A stretch of DNA of 64,000 nt from IMG/VR virus record IMGVR_UViG_3300002220_000771; one strand, written 5' to 3'. The notes beneath the pieces were generated by a model. The model ran no database searches and was not told where the DNA came from. It saw only the letters and a program-made list of their open reading frames with translations. Positions 10,321 to 60,178 of the stretch are shown here, piece after piece (the first letter of the stretch is position 1; each line of letters opens with the position of its first letter). The stretch comes from an uncultured virus (IMG/VR IMGVR_UViG_3300002220_000771). Its lineage: Duplodnaviria > Heunggongvirae > Uroviricota > Caudoviricetes. The position numbers and the translations under genes are program-made.

Positions 10321-10719
10321 TTATATAACAAAATACTCATCACCATCAAATTCAATTACTGTATAATTATGTGATAAATCATTTGCAAGTTCATCCCAAT
10401 TAATATACATTGTAAGACCATTAGGAATGGTAGTACTATACATATCTTCGTAATTTTCTTTTAAATATTCTGTAAAATCATCAATTAGAATAAGATTATC
10501 ACCATTACGAACCATTGTGATTAAATCATTTTCAATCTCAAGTAGAGCTCTGTATCTAGGATCGTTAGATAAAATATCAATTTCATCTAAAATATCAGCT
10601 TTTAATTCATTAGTTAAATTATCGTTTTCAAGAGAATCTACTAAATTATCAATAGTATCTTTGATATCGTCTAATTCATATCCTAACTCATTTGCACTAA
10701 TAATATTATATTTTGCCAT
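10321..10719 (-). CDS. Acidic ArdA-like protein (possible antirestriction DNA mimic)
   Basis: Very D/E-rich; C-terminal YINWDELANDL..Y...F.G..Y resembles the ArdA C-terminus. Confidence 0.5.
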   Translation of the reverse strand: MAKYNIISANELGYELDDIKDTIDNLVDSLENDNLTNELKADILDEIDILSNDPRYRALLEIENDLITMVRNGDNLILIDDFTEYLKENYEDMYSTTIPNGLTMYINWDELANDLSHNYTVIEFDGDEYFVI

Positions 10720-19122: not shown

Positions 19123-19647
19123 TCATTTTTTCACCAAGTTAAAATTATCTGGCTTATTTTTCATTATTTCCTTTATCTGGTTAAATGATACAGGGTAGAA
19201 ATTATTATTATCCACTCCAATATCATACTGCTTTCCCATTATATTTAGATTGAGATTTCCATGTGAGTGACCATACAATTGCCATGAACCATAATGAGAT
19301 CTTGGCCAAGTTAGCATTGCATAATGACATACAACAACATATTGATCTTCAATTTGTTTAGCCCATCCAGAAAAGGAATCGCCTTTCATCCACTTGTCAT
19401 GACTACCTTTCAGAAATATATGCTCACCATTCAGTTGCTTTATATACTTATCAACCGGTAGTTTATTACGGAACGCAAAATCACCGGCATGAATTACTAT
19501 ATCACTATTAGATACAACCTCATTATGCCTTCTAATAATTTCCTGATCCATTTCATATATATTATCAAATGGTCTATTACAGAATTTGATTATACTTGAA
19601 TCCCCTTTTGCATGCCCATAATGTTCATCTGAAGTAAAAAAATACAT
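19123..19647 (-). CDS. Calcineurin-like metallophosphoesterase
   Basis: SDEHYGH, GDF, GSHD, GHSH motifs; start moved to MYFFTSD to avoid the tRNA. Confidence 0.9.
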   Translation of the reverse strand: MYFFTSDEHYGHAKGDSSIIKFCNRPFDNIYEMDQEIIRRHNEVVSNSDIVIHAGDFAFRNKLPVDKYIKQLNGEHIFLKGSHDKWMKGDSFSGWAKQIEDQYVVVCHYAMLTWPRSHYGSWQLYGHSHGNLNLNIMGKQYDIGVDNNNFYPVSFNQIKEIMKNKPDNFNLVKK

Positions 19648-19668
19648 ATTTTTTTTCCTTTTTAATAT

Positions 19669-19745
19669 TGGAGGGGCTAGGGGGATTCGAACCCACCATA
19701 TTACCTGTTTAGAAGACAGGTGCGTATCCATTACGCTATAGCCCC
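19669..19745 (-). tRNA. tRNA-Arg(TCT)
   Basis: Cloverleaf, encoded CCA. Confidence 0.95.
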
Positions 19746-20256: not shown

Positions 20257-20454
20257 TATTACTTTAGTACCCCTGATTTTGTTTTATGATTACATTCCTC
20301 TTGTGGCGTCCTACCCAGCCATCATTATACTGCTCACCTATTCCGGCTCTATTTGGACTCGCACCCTCTATAGTCAAAACGATTTTTCAATCTCCTATAT
20401 TAGAGCAGTGGTGTCAGGTGGTTCCTCTCCGTAGAGCGTAATCTCAAAGTAATA
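20257..20454 (-). ncRNA. rnpB: Minimal RNase P RNA-like gene
   Basis: P1 TATTACTTTG/TAAAGTAATA; P2 GATTAC/GTAATC; short P3; GAGGAAccaccTGA with ACAAAATCAGGGGTA forming a P4-like pseudoknot; own promoter. Confidence 0.7.
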
Positions 20455-20521
20455 TTGTATTATCTTTTAACCATTTTTTATAATATATCATATTTTATTT
20501 ATATTGTCAAGAAAAATATTT

Positions 20522-23877: not shown

Positions 23878-24087
23878 CTATTTACGAGATTTTTTCAAAG
23901 CTTTTTTAGCCAGTATTTTTACAATACGTGCGTGTTTTTTGGCCTTGTTGATTTCTCTGCGACCTGCTGCACGATAACGAGCGCATTTGGTAAGATTTCT
24001 ACCATATTTTTTTGCGCCGGAACCCTTTTCTCTTCTCTTTTTCTTCCCACCTAATGAAGAGAGAACTTCTCGGACTGTTTTTCCCAT
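23878..24087 (-). CDS. Small very basic protein within the tRNA array
   Basis: Perfect AAGGAGGT RBS; K/R-rich. Confidence 0.8.
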   Translation of the reverse strand: MGKTVREVLSSLGGKKKRREKGSGAKKYGRNLTKCARYRAAGRREINKAKKHARIVKILAKKALKKSRK

Positions 24088-24874: not shown

Positions 24875-26005
24875 TCAAGATATTTTTTTATTAATTTCTG
24901 GATATGGTGTTCTACTGATTAGAATTTCTTTACATCCTGTAACTTCTTTAATTTTCTCAATAAAATCATTTTCATTACCAAAATTTAAAATATTACCATT
25001 ATATGTAAGAGTATAACTGTTGAGTAAATCCAAGCATGTTATTGCTAATATAAAGTTATGATTTTTTATATACCCATCTTTATTTATAGCATATTTTATC
25101 AAATCTAAATCTAATATGGTTTTTCTAAATTCTCCTTGAATACCTGTATCAAAATTCTCCTCATATGGATTATTTTTTATATCATTTGGTATGTGCTCGT
25201 TAGTCATTGGGCCATTACCATGTCTTGTCTGATAAGCCCTTGTAACTAATATTATTTCAGGACTCTCTGTAAGTTCTAATATATTTTTTGTTCCAGTATT
25301 GGCCCTTGTAACATGAGGGAAAAATCCAAAATTTTGATCTAAAAGTAATCCTTGTGATCCTTCATAAATGTAATTATCATAAGTAAATTTATTATCGTTA
25401 TTCAGGAAATTATTTACAATTTTTATATTATCTATTTCTAATAAATGCTCACAAATATAAATGAAATCATTATGTATTGTATTATCTATTGTGATCCTTT
25501 TATTTTCATAATATTTTCGTATACAATTTAATTTTATTTTTAATATTGATGAGTGTAACAAATCAAATGCTGTTAAAGAATAATGATCTTCTTCTCGTTG
25601 AATTGTTTGACCTACACCAACTCCACAACTACCATGCTCTGTTTTAAAATCCAAAATTCTATTATAAATTTTTTCATATGGTGTTGTAATTGGACATTTA
25701 TCATCTATAATTAATTTAGGTATGGTATGGATTTTTCCTTCCAATACTGTTAATTCATTTATGATACCTACTGGATCAACTGTGCAGAATTTAGACCAGT
25801 ATGTGTCGCAACCATGAAGTGTTCCACTACCAAAATTAGAAAATACATGATCAATACCATTTTTTAAAACAACGTGGTGGCCAGCTTGTTGGCCACCACA
25901 AAATCGTATTATTAAATTTTTAGATGAATATGTAGATAAATAGCTTACAATTTTACCTTTACCTTCATCACCAAAACCACATCCTACAACTGCGACATGT
26001 TTCAT
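24875..26005 (-). CDS. purA: Adenylosuccinate synthetase-like protein
   Basis: GFGDEGKG, GGQQAGH, GSCGVG, EGSQG.LLD, TRAYQTRHGNGP. Confidence 0.85.
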   Translation of the reverse strand: MKHVAVVGCGFGDEGKGKIVSYLSTYSSKNLIIRFCGGQQAGHHVVLKNGIDHVFSNFGSGTLHGCDTYWSKFCTVDPVGIINELTVLEGKIHTIPKLIIDDKCPITTPYEKIYNRILDFKTEHGSCGVGVGQTIQREEDHYSLTAFDLLHSSILKIKLNCIRKYYENKRITIDNTIHNDFIYICEHLLEIDNIKIVNNFLNNDNKFTYDNYIYEGSQGLLLDQNFGFFPHVTRANTGTKNILELTESPEIILVTRAYQTRHGNGPMTNEHIPNDIKNNPYEENFDTGIQGEFRKTILDLDLIKYAINKDGYIKNHNFILAITCLDLLNSYTLTYNGNILNFGNENDFIEKIKEVTGCKEILISRTPYPEINKKIS

Positions 26006-33231: not shown

Positions 33232-33960
33232 TTATGATGATTCCCTTAACAGGTATACATTATTAATAACCTTAAAACTCATTCTACCATTAATTGTTTC
33301 ACTATATTTTTCTATTACAGGTCTAATAACAATTCCTTCTCTATGATTTTTTGTATTGTGATATTTTCCTTTAGCCATTTCTAATAATTCATCAATAGAA
33401 TGATTAAATTCAAATACATCAATAATAGGAACCAGTTTCATTCCTGTAGCATCTCTAAACATTTTTAATTCTTCAAAATTAGCATATTCTTTTTTGTTAA
33501 TATCATAAATATTGAATATATACATATCAACTTCTTTTAGTCCAAGCTTGTTTCCTTGAATACCGGGACCAACAATTTCACCTTGAATAGCAATATTACC
33601 GATTTGTTCTAATTTATTTTTTATATCATATTTTTCAGATATTTTAATATAAATGTTATCAGCATTATCATCAATTAATTTCATAGATAAATTTCTACTG
33701 CAAACATGATAATCACTATTAGCATTTATAAATGTTGCACTCGTTCCATCAAGTTTAACAGTAGAATAAACTATTTCACCCTTTAATTCATTAATGACTT
33801 CTGGAACATTTTGTATTCTTATTTCATCTGTTTTTGGAACAAGATTAGATGGGAAAGTACCTCTAACTTTACCTGATAATTGTACTGGAACAGGTTTTTC
33901 ATAATGTCGTATATTTAACAATTCGCTTAAATCTAATCCAATATCAAGATGTATAATCAT
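33232..33960 (-). CDS. RNA ligase (DRB0094/Rnl2-like), catalytic C-terminal fragment
   Basis: PKTDE.RIQN, KLDGTS, SRN, QGEIVGPGIQGN, REGIV, SFKVI. Confidence 0.9.
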   Translation of the reverse strand: MIIHLDIGLDLSELLNIRHYEKPVPVQLSGKVRGTFPSNLVPKTDEIRIQNVPEVINELKGEIVYSTVKLDGTSATFINANSDYHVCSRNLSMKLIDDNADNIYIKISEKYDIKNKLEQIGNIAIQGEIVGPGIQGNKLGLKEVDMYIFNIYDINKKEYANFEELKMFRDATGMKLVPIIDVFEFNHSIDELLEMAKGKYHNTKNHREGIVIRPVIEKYSETINGRMSFKVINNVYLLRESS

Positions 33961-34924
33961 AAAAATTCTCCAATATTTTTTGTTTTCTTTTTATATAAAT
34001 TGTTGCATCATTATACATAAAATTATATAATTTTTCTATTTCAGATTTTTTACCATATTTTAAATGAAACATTTTTTTTGTTGATATATCTTGATATAAT
34101 TTATTTGATTTTATGTCTAAGTACTTATCAATCATATCAGTTAAAAATGTTAAAAAATCAAATGTTCCAATAAATGCCATTCTAATATATCCTGTTTTTA
34201 CAAGAAAAACGGCCCCATCACCATCAAAAAATCCTCTTAAAAAATGCCTAAATGTATCTCTTGTAAATAAAACATTAGGCCCCATACATATTAAAGATTT
34301 TTTTGGTACAATACCTATCTCATTTAATCTTTTAGTAATATGATGGTCACATATTACTAAACTATATTGATTTTTATATGTTTCTTTTTCATTACGTTCA
34401 ATAAAATACAATGGTCTTTCATTTAAAAATAAAGATTTTGAAAATATTTCTAATATATCTTTATCATCTTCATTTAATGTAATTTTTATATTATGTCCTG
34501 TATTACAACCATCAGCAAATAATAATCCCAAAAAATATGCTGATATTTCATTATCAATATTATCAAAAAACTCTTCTCTAATTTTATATTTTTTAGTTTC
34601 TATACTATTACTTCTAATACAAATATTATTATAACGAAGTATTTTTATAATTTGACTTCTACTTAAATTAAAAATATGTATTAATTCGGTAATTGTTTTT
34701 ATTTTATATTGTTTTATAATATTTTTTTGTGTTTCTTCATTAACAATATCAATAATCTTATTATTTGTTGTAATATATCTACCAACCACAACACCACAAT
34801 ATTTTAAAATTCTTGATATTGTTATTCTATTGACATTATATATTTTAGATATTTTTGTGGTTGACATATTTTGACATTCATACATATCAATAATATTATC
34901 ATATTGTGATGGATCTATTTTCAT
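33944..34924 (-). CDS. LAGLIDADG homing endonuclease inserted in the RNA ligase gene
   Basis: AYFLGLLFADG and FLRGFFDGDG motifs. Confidence 0.92.
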   Translation of the reverse strand: MKIDPSQYDNIIDMYECQNMSTTKISKIYNVNRITISRILKYCGVVVGRYITTNNKIIDIVNEETQKNIIKQYKIKTITELIHIFNLSRSQIIKILRYNNICIRSNSIETKKYKIREEFFDNIDNEISAYFLGLLFADGCNTGHNIKITLNEDDKDILEIFSKSLFLNERPLYFIERNEKETYKNQYSLVICDHHITKRLNEIGIVPKKSLICMGPNVLFTRDTFRHFLRGFFDGDGAVFLVKTGYIRMAFIGTFDFLTFLTDMIDKYLDIKSNKLYQDISTKKMFHLKYGKKSEIEKLYNFMYNDATIYIKRKQKILENFYDYTS

Positions 34925-34957: not shown

Positions 34958-35296
34958 TTATAAAACATCAGGAACATTTATATAAAAATTATTGTCTTTT
35001 TTAAAAATTTTTCCCCCTGTTATTTTTTCTAAAATTGATAGAGGCAATACTAATCCCTGACTGATTTCACCCCTCAGTTTGATAGTTTTTACTTTGAACC
35101 CTCTTGGGCGTAAAAATTCATATTCAGGTAATTCAGGCGTCTGGCTATCAATTTCAACATAAACAACTGTATCACCTATATTGAATTCACCTTTCTTTAC
35201 AACGCATTGCCAGCCTAAGACACCTGCCAGTTCTATAGCATCAGCGTTTTCGATAGGTTTTATCCATTCTATTTTTTGAATAGTTGCTGGTGGCAT
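34958..35296 (-). CDS. RNA ligase (DRB0094-like), N-terminal fragment
   Basis: ATIQKI..IKPIENADAIE..GWQCVVKKGEF..VY.EIDS..KTIKLRGEISQGL. Confidence 0.88.
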   Translation of the reverse strand: MPPATIQKIEWIKPIENADAIELAGVLGWQCVVKKGEFNIGDTVVYVEIDSQTPELPEYEFLRPRGFKVKTIKLRGEISQGLVLPLSILEKITGGKIFKKDNNFYINVPDVL

Positions 35297-40070: not shown

Positions 40071-40238
40071 TATAATATTTCCTTATATTATTTCCTTTTG
40101 ATTACTATTATATCTTAATTTGATATAATTGTAAATACATTAAAAAAGAAATAATTCAATTATTTAAAAAAATAAATTAAATATTTTAGGGAATTTACGG
40201 AGAGTGGCGAAAAATAAGTAAAAAATAAAAAATAAAAC

Positions 40239-40267
40239 TTGACAATTTTTTAACAATATGTTATAAA
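40239..40267 (+). promoter_or_regulatory. Sigma70-type promoter overlapping TATAAATA, driving the right tRNA array
   Basis: TTGACA-17-TATAAA. Confidence 0.85.
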
Positions 40268-40274
40268 TATATAC

Positions 40275-40334
40275 ATGAAGATAAGAAAACGATTTATAAA
40301 AGTTGAGAGTACAGAAGGTACCAAATTTAGGTAA
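40275..40334 (+). CDS. Leaderless leader peptide MKIRKRFIKVESTEGTKFR (putative attenuator)
   Basis: ATG at the predicted +1; stop codon lies inside the antiterminator strand. Confidence 0.7.
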   Translation: MKIRKRFIKVESTEGTKFR

Positions 40335-40355
40335 CGGGGGAAGTGTCTGCGAAAG

Positions 40356-40387
40356 ACCCTGTTACCAGTAGGTAACAGGGTTTTTTT
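40356..40387 (+). terminator. Attenuator terminator upstream of the tRNA array
   Basis: CCCTGTTACC-AGTA-GGTAACAGGG-TTTTTTT. Confidence 0.95.
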
Positions 40388-40402
40388 ATTATTGAAAAAT
40401 AT

Positions 40403-40476
40403 AGTGCATTAGTTTAGTGATAGAACCAAAGACTTTCAATCTTTAGGCACCGGTTTGATTCCGGTATGCACTACCA
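40403..40476 (+). tRNA. tRNA-Glu(TTC)
   Basis: Cloverleaf, CCA. Confidence 0.88.
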
Positions 40477-40483
40477 AATATTA

Positions 40484-40558
40484 GCCGATGTAGTTTAGCA
40501 GGTAAAACATATCTTTGGTAAGGATAAAATATGGGTTCAAGTCCCATCGTTGGCTCCA
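40484..40558 (+). tRNA. tRNA-Thr(GGT)
   Basis: Cloverleaf, CCA. Confidence 0.93.
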
Positions 40559-40574
40559 GAATATAGAGGTTAAA

Positions 40575-41258
40575 ATGATTATAGTAATTGGTGATATACA
40601 TGGAGATTTTGGGTATGTGAATAAGTTTTTAAACTCACATAATGAAGTTACAACTGTATTACAGTGTGGTGATTTCGGATATTGGCCTAAACAACATAAT
40701 AAATCTTATTTAAATGAATGTGGAAAAATAAAACATTGGGATCAATATTCATTATATAATAAGGATGTAAAATTTCATTGGTGTGATGGAAATCATGAGG
40801 ATTTTCAATCACTTAAAGAATGTAATTATAAACCTGATATGAAAAATGATAATATTATATATCAGTCAAGAGGTTCATATATAACACTTTTAAATGGCAA
40901 AAACGTATTATTTATAGGTGGGGCATGTTCTGTAGATAAAAAATATAGAACACAAAATATTGATTGGTTTCCAGAAGAAATAATTACACAATATGATATT
41001 AATAATTTACCTAATGTTAATATTGATATTGTTATAAGTCATACCGCTCCAATGGAGTTTCAGGTATTTGATGATAATAAATTTCTTCACGATCCATCTA
41101 GAGATGTTTTATCGGTTATATTAAATAAATATAAACCTATGAAATGGTATTTTGGGCACTTCCATACTTATAAAAAAGGTAGAGCATATGGTTGTGAATG
41201 GGTATCATTAGCATATGCTGGAAGTGGATTAAGATGGTGGATTGAATTAGGAAAATAA
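40575..41258 (+). CDS. Calcineurin-like metallophosphoesterase
   Basis: GDIHG, GDFG, GNHE, SH, GHFH. Confidence 0.92.
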   Translation: MIIVIGDIHGDFGYVNKFLNSHNEVTTVLQCGDFGYWPKQHNKSYLNECGKIKHWDQYSLYNKDVKFHWCDGNHEDFQSLKECNYKPDMKNDNIIYQSRGSYITLLNGKNVLFIGGACSVDKKYRTQNIDWFPEEIITQYDINNLPNVNIDIVISHTAPMEFQVFDDNKFLHDPSRDVLSVILNKYKPMKWYFGHFHTYKKGRAYGCEWVSLAYAGSGLRWWIELGK

Positions 41259-41451
41259 TTTACTTGACATATAAATATAAATGTGTTAATATAAATATAT
41301 GAAGAAAAAGAAAAAAATTTTTTATTGTGGTTGTGGAAAATTATTTTATAGTGGTCGTTCAATACCGTTAAAAGAATGTATGTATTGTTGTGATCATAAG
41401 AAAGAATTTCATAATTGTTATGATTTTCTTGAACATAGAGAATGTAATTTA

Positions 41452-41533
41452 ATCCCTGTATCGGAAGTGGCTACGAACCACCGCATTAAACCGTAATGGA
41501 CGCATGAGAGTTCAAGTCTCTCCAGGGATTCCA
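41452..41533 (+). tRNA. Atypical tRNA-Arg(ACG) with displaced D-arm
   Basis: Same architecture and conserved TAAACCGTAATGGA segment as 20795..20876. Confidence 0.7.
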
Positions 41534-41545
41534 ATATAAGATACA

Positions 41546-42255: not shown

Positions 42256-42329
42256 GGGGAATTGGACTAAAAGTAAGGCGTTACGTTTACACCGTAAAGA
42301 AAGAGGAGCATTACCTCTATTCCCTACCA
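42256..42329 (+). tRNA. tRNA-Val(TAC), divergent
   Basis: Cloverleaf, non-canonical D and T loops, CCA. Confidence 0.85.
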
Positions 42330-50278: not shown

Positions 50279-51028
50279 ATGAGATTAGAAAAAAATATTA
50301 ATGATAAGAACGTATTGTTATTAGAATCAATTCTCGATAGAGGTATCTTCAAGGCAGTTTTTCTTGGAGGAATTGCAGGAGCTGGAAAAAGTTATGTATC
50401 TAGTAGAGTGAAGTCTGGGTTGATTGAACCGAGAGTTGTGAATACTGATACATGGGTTGAATATTATATGCGTGTTAAAAAGGGATTGATTAAGTCAGAT
50501 CTTATTAATCCACATGATTTATGGTGTGATACATCTAAAAAATTAGTTTCAAGTCAATTAACACAATATTTAAATTCTATGTTACCACTTTTATGTGATC
50601 AAACATCAACAAGAGCATCAACCGTAGTACGAAGAAATGGTATTCTTGAAAGAATGGGTTATGATACAGCAATGATTTATGTGAATACAACACTAGAAAC
50701 AGCTATAGAAAGAGTTAATAGACGAGAAAGGAAGGTTCCAGTAGAACAGGTTATAGAATATTATGAAAATGCTAAAAAAATAAAACCATATTTAAAAGCT
50801 AAATTTCCTATATTTCTTGAAATAAAAAATGATGATGGTGAATTAACTGATGATGTTATTTTAAATGCATTTAAAAGAATGTTATTTTTTTATGATAATC
50901 CGGTTTCTAATCCGATAGGTGTTGATATTATGTATACAATGAAAGAAAAAGGTTGGAAATATTTGGCACCTAACATATATACTATGAGTGAAATAAAATC
51001 TATAGCAGGAGATTGGTATAGAAAATGA
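50279..51028 (+). CDS. P-loop kinase (zeta-toxin/AAA_33-like)
   Basis: KAVFLGGIAGAGKS; A.ER...R.R.V. Confidence 0.85.
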   Translation: MRLEKNINDKNVLLLESILDRGIFKAVFLGGIAGAGKSYVSSRVKSGLIEPRVVNTDTWVEYYMRVKKGLIKSDLINPHDLWCDTSKKLVSSQLTQYLNSMLPLLCDQTSTRASTVVRRNGILERMGYDTAMIYVNTTLETAIERVNRRERKVPVEQVIEYYENAKKIKPYLKAKFPIFLEIKNDDGELTDDVILNAFKRMLFFYDNPVSNPIGVDIMYTMKEKGWKYLAPNIYTMSEIKSIAGDWYRK

Positions 51029-59326: not shown

Positions 59327-59732
59327 GTTTAATGATGAAATTATTGAAATTATAGATTTGGGTGAAGAAGGTGAAATGATTGATATAGAAGTATCTGGTG
59401 ATCATTTATTTTTTGCAAATGATATATTAACAAAAAATTCAATGGGTGTTCCTGCAACAGCAGATTTTCAGATGATTTTTGGAAAAGATGTAGAAAAGGC
59501 AGTATATGAAAGTGAAATACAATATAAAATTGTAAAGAATAGATTGGGTGGTAGAGTAGGTGAAACGAGTAAATTTTATTTTGATGCAAGAACATTAAAA
59601 ATGTATGATAGTCTTGAACTTGAAATGTGGTTAGATGATGCACAAATTACAGGAGATGAAAGAGTAACTGCACCAGTTTCAGATAATATTCAACAAATAA
59701 GAGGAAGTAAAAGTAAAAGGAGGGAAAGATGA
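59316..59732 (+). CDS. dnaB: Split intein C-half (41 aa) plus helicase C-fragment
   Basis: MIDIEVSGDHLFFANDILTKN|SMGVPATADF..KNRLGG. Confidence 0.93.
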   Translation: MDIEFNDEIIEIIDLGEEGEMIDIEVSGDHLFFANDILTKNSMGVPATADFQMIFGKDVEKAVYESEIQYKIVKNRLGGRVGETSKFYFDARTLKMYDSLELEMWLDDAQITGDERVTAPVSDNIQQIRGSKSKRRER

Positions 59733-60178
59733 ATGAAGATGTAGTAGAAAGTAAAATATTAACTTTTGCAAGAATTGAATTTGAAGCATTAGGTTATGAT
59801 CTTAATCAAATGGAGGAAGATCCAAATAAATGGATATGTGAAAATGTTTTAGAATTGTTAGATGTTTTTGCCAAACAAGGGCATTCTGGTTCATCAGCAC
59901 CATATTGTGTTAATTATTTTTCAAACTTAGCATTATTTAAACCATTATCACCATTAAATGGAAATGATAATGAATGGGGTGAAGTATCTGATGGTTTATG
60001 GCAGAATAAAAGAGCATTTAGTGTTTTTAAAGGAAGGGATAATAAAGCATATGATATTAATGGTAAAGTATTTGTAGAACCTAATGGTTGTGCATATATA
60101 AATGAGAATAGTAAGGTGTATATTGAATTTCCATATATACCAAAAACAGAATATGTTCATGTTGAAGGAGACGAATAA
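59729..60178 (+). CDS. Conserved hypothetical phage protein
   Basis: F..QGHSG.SA..PLSPL.G...EW..QNKR. Confidence 0.8.
   Translation: MNEDVVESKILTFARIEFEALGYDLNQMEEDPNKWICENVLELLDVFAKQGHSGSSAPYCVNYFSNLALFKPLSPLNGNDNEWGEVSDGLWQNKRAFSVFKGRDNKAYDINGKVFVEPNGCAYINENSKVYIEFPYIPKTEYVHVEGDE

Follow-up and report, generated by a model that had tools for sequence, protein, structure and literature searches.

A putative leader-peptide attenuator ahead of tRNA and phosphoesterase genes in an uncultured large phage

Here, we describe a regulatory element in a 64,000-nucleotide (nt) stretch of DNA from an uncultured large phage (IMG/VR record IMGVR_UViG_3300002220_000771; this whole stretch is called the window below). 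On the plus strand, an intrinsic terminator placed directly in front of transfer RNA (tRNA) genes competes with an antiterminator hairpin, and one arm of the latter contains the stop codon of a 19-codon open reading frame (ORF). We see about an even chance that this element, termed unit 1, is a translation-coupled transcription attenuator of the leader-peptide type, heading the rightward early transcription unit. Its scope is best read as the head of that unit, comprising two tRNA genes and a phosphoesterase gene. The first-pass annotation of the region had envisaged a device by which the phage makes the tRNAs of its right array on demand. This overstated the scope, since the phosphoesterase gene would be gated as well and the later tRNA genes have promoters of their own at 41264 and 42758.

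The two hairpins of unit 1 share one strand of RNA. The terminator (40352-40387, plus strand) consists of a 15-base-pair (bp) stem, a 4-nt loop (40367-40370) and seven U residues (40381-40387), and its predicted folding energy of -22.1 kcal/mol was equalled by none of 200 shuffled sequences. Its 5' arm is common to the antiterminator hairpin (40330-40366, plus strand), in which an upstream third copy of the arm at 40330-40339, including the stop codon at 40332-40334, is joined through a 17-nt loop to the 3' arm at 40357-40366. The 10 bp formed between these arms, one of them G-U, contribute -16.9 kcal/mol. Arm complementarity of the leader reached -17.7 kcal/mol, compared to a mean of -9.3 kcal/mol after shuffling, and was equalled by 1 of 2,000 dinucleotide shuffles. 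Folding of both conformers showed that nascent RNA extending to 40366-40375 adopts the antiterminator and that the terminator wins only after its 3' arm has been transcribed. The 10-bp pairing reported in the first-pass annotation was thereby recovered, and the positions and letters given there for the promoter, frame, 10-mer, terminator and tRNA-Glu gene all agreed with the sequence. The alternative between terminator and antiterminator is real and non-random.

These figures bear on the trivial explanation that an ordinary promoter is followed by a hairpin with a coincidental complementarity and a coincidental frame. About one-third of the ATGs in this AT-rich window open frames of at least 19 codons, and the codon pattern described below was noticed post hoc, both of which would suit such a coincidence. 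However, the shuffle frequencies of the arm complementarity and of the terminator speak against it, as does the distribution of strong terminators: six hairpin rows in the 64 kb correspond to about five distinct sites, two of which lie no more than 20 nt before tRNA genes. We consider chance a highly improbable explanation.

The expected dependence of the fold on ribosome position was reproduced in silico. The leader frame (40275-40334, plus strand) comprises 19 codons and the stop codon, with its ATG at the predicted +1 position. Codons 10-16 (40302-40322, plus strand) specify V-E-S-T-E-G-T, with the letters noted previously, and for each of them a plus-strand tRNA is present, which makes an unbroken run of seven codons. 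In masked folds, the ribosome was represented by an assumed footprint reaching from -15 to +12 nt relative to the A site. Placing it at the stop codon abolished the antiterminator, which kept its full -16.9 kcal/mol with the ribosome stalled at any of codons 10-15 and was reduced to -8.9 kcal/mol with the stall at codon 16. The seven-codon run thus ends where the attenuation model expects, and the geometry proposed at first reading, with the antiterminator masked by a ribosome at the stop and freed by an upstream stall, was borne out by these computed folds.

We propose the following course of events. Host RNA polymerase would start at or beside the ATG at 40275, and the antiterminator (40330-40339 paired with 40357-40366) would form first, holding the 5' arm of the terminator and allowing the polymerase to reach the tRNA-Glu, tRNA-Thr and phosphoesterase genes. 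A fast ribosome arriving at the stop codon would cover the upstream arm, the terminator would form, and transcription would end approximately 15 nt before the first tRNA gene. Slow decoding at codons 2-15, notably in the part of the run at codons 10-15, would leave this arm free and result in read-through. The transcription start, translation of the frame, selection of the fold by ribosome position, and a shortage of tRNA or decoding capacity as the signal are steps of this scheme that we infer.

Expression of the genes behind the terminator depends on its being passed. The first of them, tRNA-Glu(TTC) (40403-40476, plus strand), starts 15 nt past the U run and is followed by tRNA-Thr(GGT) (40484-40558, plus strand) and by a gene encoding a calcineurin-type metallophosphoesterase (40575-41258, plus strand), which has its own Shine-Dalgarno sequence and no promoter of its own. 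Neither inspection of the sequence nor the listing of family promoters revealed a promoter between the terminator and any of these three genes, and their expression thus requires read-through. Small stable RNAs are a feature of the tRNA regions of phages T5 and T4. Unit 1 might similarly be a stand-alone small gene, giving rise to an RNA of about 110 nt or to a 19-residue peptide unrelated to tRNA expression; its promoter-to-terminator unit is complete, and the T5 annotation (NC_005859) lists several small stable RNAs. We regard this as quite improbable, considering that it leaves tRNA-Glu, tRNA-Thr and the phosphoesterase without a promoter and that the same layout recurs before tRNA-Tyr in the window, whereas in T5 none of the 23 tRNAs has a terminator within 80 nt upstream.

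A strong promoter and a strong terminator, delimiting a transcript of about 110 nt, would also fit a terminator that is constitutive and partly leaky or one that processive antitermination overcomes, as at lambda PR'-tR'. Such a terminator would damp or time the rightward unit and yield the short transcript as a by-product. Overlap of the promoter with the T4-late-like octamer TATAAATA at 40262-40269 may be a hint of temporal control in this sense. However, the third arm copy is non-random, and a hairpin competing with the terminator is not required for processive antitermination. Furthermore, no antiterminator protein was found among the scanned ORFs (63 compared to Pfam and 14, partly the same, to PHROGs), and the terminators sit specifically before tRNAs. 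Such a leaky or timed terminator is in our judgment unlikely.

A second element in the window, unit 2 on the minus strand (22305-22075), shows a clearer relation between leader codons and downstream tRNAs. Among the 22 early promoters of the family described below, only those of unit 1 and unit 2 have a terminator within 200 nt downstream. The promoter of unit 2 (22305-22268, minus strand), with its -35 element at 22305-22300 and TATAAATA at 22275-22268, precedes a clear Shine-Dalgarno sequence (22260-22254), a leader frame of 30 codons plus stop (22247-22155) and a terminator (22133-22086) with a stem of about 15 bp, a 12-nt loop and a U run (-19.1 kcal/mol), all on the same strand. Beyond this terminator, tRNA-Tyr (22074-21988, minus strand) lies at a distance of 17-20 nt, with Phe, Ile(TAT), Gln, Pro, Lys, Leu, Leu and Arg(TCT) tRNAs behind it. 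Downstream of the start codon, 21 of 29 codons are read by these nine tRNAs, compared to a mean of 12.2 in 29-codon windows of the phage's own genes (P = 0.0016; binomial P = 0.005 at the amino-acid level), and all nine are represented in the frame (P = 0.025). The matching codons cluster at codons 2-22; by footprint arithmetic, a ribosome stalled in about this part of the frame would not yet cover its 3' end. A weak candidate antiterminator (22174-22162 with 22125-22114) overlaps the last codons of the frame. Units 1 and 2 showed no homology beyond AT-richness. On the attenuator reading, unit 2 would be a typical member of the class and unit 1 an atypical, weaker one, leaderless and with mixed codons.

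Similar units were found in unrelated phages. IMG/VR was scanned with a pattern that combines a common tRNA D-arm motif with a T run located 17-32 nt upstream of it, and 80 loci among the matches listed were sampled; this sample is biased by the search pattern and gives no frequency of such units. A terminator hairpin within 35 nt before the tRNA was present at 19 of the 80 loci, 13 of which head blocks of at least three tRNAs. Among ATG frames of 10-60 codons whose end lies 40-130 nt before the tRNA, the longest was taken as the leader frame. Two of the 13 loci had no short frame by this rule, and the remaining 11 yielded seven distinct leaders. Matches of the whole peptide to the downstream tRNAs gave P values of 0.044, 0.011, 0.002, 0.07, 0.08, 0.65 and 0.015, which is below 0.05 for four of the seven. 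The best 12-residue window had P values of at most 0.011 in four leaders, and in a related pair among them it was equalled by none of approximately 8,900 background windows. With both units of the window included, leaders matched their own tRNA set better than the sets of other units (mean z of 1.8 and 0.18, respectively). In four of the seven leaders, the 5' arm of the terminator finds its best pairing partner 0-20 nt ahead of the stop codon, which is the geometry of unit 1; 6, 43, 55 and 69 of 1,000 shuffles were as good. As a control, five single-tRNA loci were inspected; three had frames by the same rule (P = 0.75, 0.22 and 0.04) and two had none, and their position suggests that these frames are the last parts of ordinary genes, with the terminators of those genes behind them. 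Together, unit 2 and the similar units in unrelated phages render the attenuation idea credible as a class.

The clearest codon-matched example of the sample is provided by the related leaders L105/L157 and L166, situated about 160-70 nt before tRNA-Phe. Each contains an unbroken run of 11-12 residues in which every amino acid is one carried by the Phe, Glu, Asp or Ala tRNAs downstream, the run without equal among the background windows mentioned above. A TAnnTTTG-type promoter motif, recognized by eye, makes it probable that these leaders derive from Bacteroidota phages.

The promoter of unit 1 (40239-40267, plus strand) has the -35 sequence TTGACA at 40239-40244, a 17-nt spacer that includes TG at 40259-40260, and the -10 sequence TATAAA at 40262-40267. 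It belongs to a set of 22 early promoters in the window that are nearly identical. Directly 5' of the -35 element lies an A-tract-rich stretch (40214-40238, plus strand) that, as read from the sequence, resembles an UP element. The A of the ATG at 40275-40277 is the 8th base past the -10 element and is preceded by C. By the usual spacing rules this A would be the transcription start, because established rules favor such a position after C, and a leaderless start at 40275 is plausible. The frame is a candidate for translation, and the placement of its ATG may be due to chance.

Several observations weigh against the attenuator interpretation. No Shine-Dalgarno sequence precedes the ATG at 40275. 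The other promoters of the family mostly have leaders of 10-64 nt, and an ATG is found 6-7 nt past the -10 element at 3 of the 22 promoters, with about one expected from base composition by estimate, so that the +1 placement of the 40275 ATG could be fortuitous. No convincing pause or anti-antiterminator (1:2) hairpin was predicted in the leader of unit 1; a 4-bp hairpin at 40309-40321 and an AU-rich pairing of 40290-40297 with 40331-40336 are weak candidates only. Since the untranslated state would default to read-through, little regulation would be expected of a leaderless frame that is translated poorly. The codon argument for unit 1 is weak. Against 18-codon windows drawn from genes of the phage, its seven-codon run had P = 0.007, and at the amino-acid level P = 0.0099, but this statistic was picked post hoc, after the data had been seen. 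Over the whole leader peptide, amino acids of the right array account for 7 of 18 residues against a background of 0.39 (P = 0.60), the best 12-residue window gave P = 0.30, and 10 of the 18 leader codons are of a type served by left-array tRNAs. The proposed match of the leader to the right array thus survives as an unbroken run and fails for the peptide as a whole. Outside unit 1, the candidate antiterminator of unit 2 was equalled by 217 of 2,000 shuffles and is not significant, the two survey leaders with the strongest codon match had no antiterminator by a simple measure (726 and 820 of 1,000 shuffles), and survey leader L165 had no codon match. Finally, the only near matches to the leader region of unit 1 were identical copies: contigs from four DNA runs are identical across the leader and offer no variants.

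An alternative is a terminator/antiterminator switch in which 40330-40339 is sequestered by some other factor, such as an RNA-binding protein of phage or host, a metabolite, a tRNA or a small RNA, with the frame being incidental. The alternative pairing is significant by itself, there is no Shine-Dalgarno sequence, the +1 ATG may be a matter of chance given that 3 of the 22 promoters have one, and the whole peptide is not enriched for right-array amino acids. On the other hand, a search of Rfam 15 gave no match at the gathering threshold, and no T-box or riboswitch match at E values up to 10. The sub-threshold matches were driven by the terminator, namely SpF36 (26.9 bits, gathering score 48) and PyrR (23.8 bits, gathering score 54). 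The leader 5' of the arm measures only about 55 nt and has no stable aptamer-like fold. Moreover, such a switch leaves unexplained both the placement of the stop codon in the arm and the codon matching of unit 2 and of the survey leaders. We consider it fairly unlikely. The ribosome-mediated attenuation originally put forward for this element is partly supported: mutually exclusive hairpins, the stop codon inside the arm and the masked folds speak for it, but the frame lacks a Shine-Dalgarno sequence and the codon match of its leader is a run statistic picked post hoc.

The arrangement recurs before tRNA arrays in the form of the seven leaders from unrelated IMG/VR phages. The nearest relatives of the phage are not syntenic. 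In a blastn search of INPHARED with positions 40100-40600, only 59-nt tRNA matches were obtained, in 27 Vibrio phage records, and the ligase protein shared at most 31% identity with cultured phages. IMG/VR relatives of the neighboring phosphoesterase (eight loci, 28-51% identity) and its metagenome relatives (71 loci, at most 54% identity in any segment and at most 53% over the full length) were not in syntenic positions. Two large related records (G002 and G003) contained no such leaders, an exact scan for the terminator palindrome returned no loci, and the extra 8 kb of record G001 contained no tRNA.

Phage tRNA arrays have been discussed in terms of codon-usage matching or of survival when host tRNAs are depleted or cleaved. 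Searches of openly accessible full texts returned no published account of attenuation for tRNA genes or phage tRNA arrays. Leader-peptide attenuation itself is known, and its use before tRNA genes is apparently undescribed. It is tempting to speculate, though at somewhat less than an even chance, that unrelated large phages gate tRNA blocks through attenuators rich in the codons of those same tRNAs, such that supply rises only upon stalling, and that the phage studied here splits the code between two sensors. Unit 2 would then serve the Lys/Leu/Ile/Phe/Tyr/Gln/Pro/Arg block and unit 1 the Glu/Thr/Val/Gly/Ser side. Stalling, for instance after depletion of host tRNAs or after their cleavage by anticodon nucleases, would raise the tRNA set together with linked RNA-repair enzymes. 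If true, a simple cis element would let decoding speed feed back directly on tRNA supply and would extend classical attenuation from amino-acid supply to tRNA supply.

The window has a G+C content of about 28% and encodes, among others, T4-type clamp-loader genes, an NAD ligase, helicases, an RNA ligase and three HNH endonucleases. It contains 24 tRNA genes, 23 called by ARAGORN and one added by Rfam; the latter, a Val tRNA at 42256-42326, has no ARAGORN call and its anticodon was read from the sequence. The switch region of unit 1 (40239-40402) lies within a 330-nt divergent gap between leftward and rightward gene blocks. The tRNAs of what had been taken for a single right array were confirmed, but protein genes are interspersed among them and further promoters lie at 41264 and 42758.

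Several tRNA-like stretches without an ARAGORN or Rfam call were noticed on the minus strand (about 24745-24400, 23790-23690, 21015-20795 and 19850-19760) and on the plus strand (41440-41535). Their ends resemble tRNA acceptor ends and close on CCA, they contain GTTCAAnTC motifs of the T-arm kind and their extra arms are long, and one near the Arg gene looks by eye like a Ser(UGA) type; the phage may have more, or unusual, tRNAs beyond the 24. Inside the left tRNA array, just 3' of an early promoter at 20510, positions 20257-20454 (minus strand) matched the archaeal RNase P RNA model over its full length, with motifs resembling CR-I and CR-V aligned, albeit below threshold (39.9 bits and E = 5.7e-9 as part of a 5.5-kb query, 30.4 bits by itself; gathering score 84). 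This stretch may encode a minimal RNase P-like RNA of about 200 nt. Between tRNA-Ile and tRNA-Trp, a very basic 69-residue ORF with a Shine-Dalgarno sequence (23878-24087, minus strand) resembles ribosomal protein bS21 by eye and had no Pfam match at E values of 0.01 or below.

A possible RNA-repair toolkit is spread over 33235-33960, 34961-35296, 50279-51025, 40575-41258 and 19123-19731. Its parts are an RNA ligase domain, a PHA02142 OB-fold ORF, an AAA_33/zeta-toxin-like P-loop kinase and two calcineurin-type phosphoesterases adjoining tRNA genes. The RNA ligase domain is apparently interrupted by, or located beside, a LAGLIDADG/HTH ORF (33947-34924), and the phosphoesterase also adjoins tRNAs in many distant relatives. 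The combination of RNA ligase, P-loop kinase and two metallophosphoesterases would fit pressure from tRNA-cleaving defenses. Elsewhere, an adenylosuccinate-synthetase homolog (24875-26005, minus strand; Pfam E = 1.2e-44) has its best PHROG match (E = 1.4e-55) in a family annotated as the PurZ-type enzyme of genomes with 2-aminoadenine. Two candidate anti-defense genes were also noted, one at 10324-10719 (minus strand) with a weak ArdA antirestriction match that falls short of the Pfam cut-off (E = 6.8e-5) and one at 59729-60175 (plus strand) with a strong match to the Thoeris inhibitor Tad3 (E = 2e-35).

The early promoter family, with its 22 sites, is very uniform, consisting of TTGACA, an A-rich stretch, a 17-nt spacer ending in TG and TATAnT. 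The T4-late-like octamer TATAAATA occurs near many of these promoters. In the promoters that head unit 2 and the tRNA-Cys block, it starts 25 nt after the -35 element, a placement that suggests tandem early and late starts. Two family promoters were considered as support for leaderless translation and rejected. At 41264, the predicted +1 coincides with the ATG of a 65-codon Cys-rich frame, but this frame overlaps a tRNA-like stretch, and at 20510, where the ATG is placed in the same way, the frame has only four codons.

Leader-peptide attenuators are well known from the amino-acid operons trp, his, leu, thr, ilv and pheA and from pheST. Unit 1 resembles them in its short frame, its terminator, an antiterminator that borrows the terminator's 5' arm, and a presumed choice between the two by ribosome position, and also in having its putative control codons in the last third of the frame. 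Passages of PMC2965389 treat leader-peptide attenuation. Unlike those systems, unit 1 would regulate phage tRNAs and a phosphoesterase, its frame is leaderless and devoid of a Shine-Dalgarno sequence, and its control codons form a run of mixed amino acids instead of repeats of one. It has no clear 1:2 hairpin, which makes read-through the untranslated default, and the quantity sensed would be tRNA supply or decoding capacity, not the supply of amino acids. E. coli pheV was considered as a precedent for an attenuator-like leader and rejected, since its sequence shows only a promoter.

With the T-box riboswitches of aminoacyl-tRNA synthetase genes, unit 1 shares a choice between terminator and antiterminator that would be tied to tRNA status before a gene of the translation apparatus. 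In contrast to these, it has no Stem I, specifier loop or T-box motif and no Rfam match, and its leader is far too short. The tRNA region of phage T5 (NC_005859) is similar in that promoters and very small ORFs lie among tRNA and HNH endonuclease genes, but no terminator separates the small ORFs from the tRNAs there, as is also apparent from the count of 0 in 23 given above. A further parallel is offered by lambda, and unit 1 has in common with its PR'/6S RNA/tR' region a strong promoter, a short terminated transcript and downstream genes requiring read-through. In lambda, the passage from PR' through the 6S RNA region and tR' to the late genes is under control of Q. Unit 1 differs from this arrangement in that no Q-like gene or site was seen and in that it possesses a cis-encoded antiterminator hairpin, inside which a reading frame ends.

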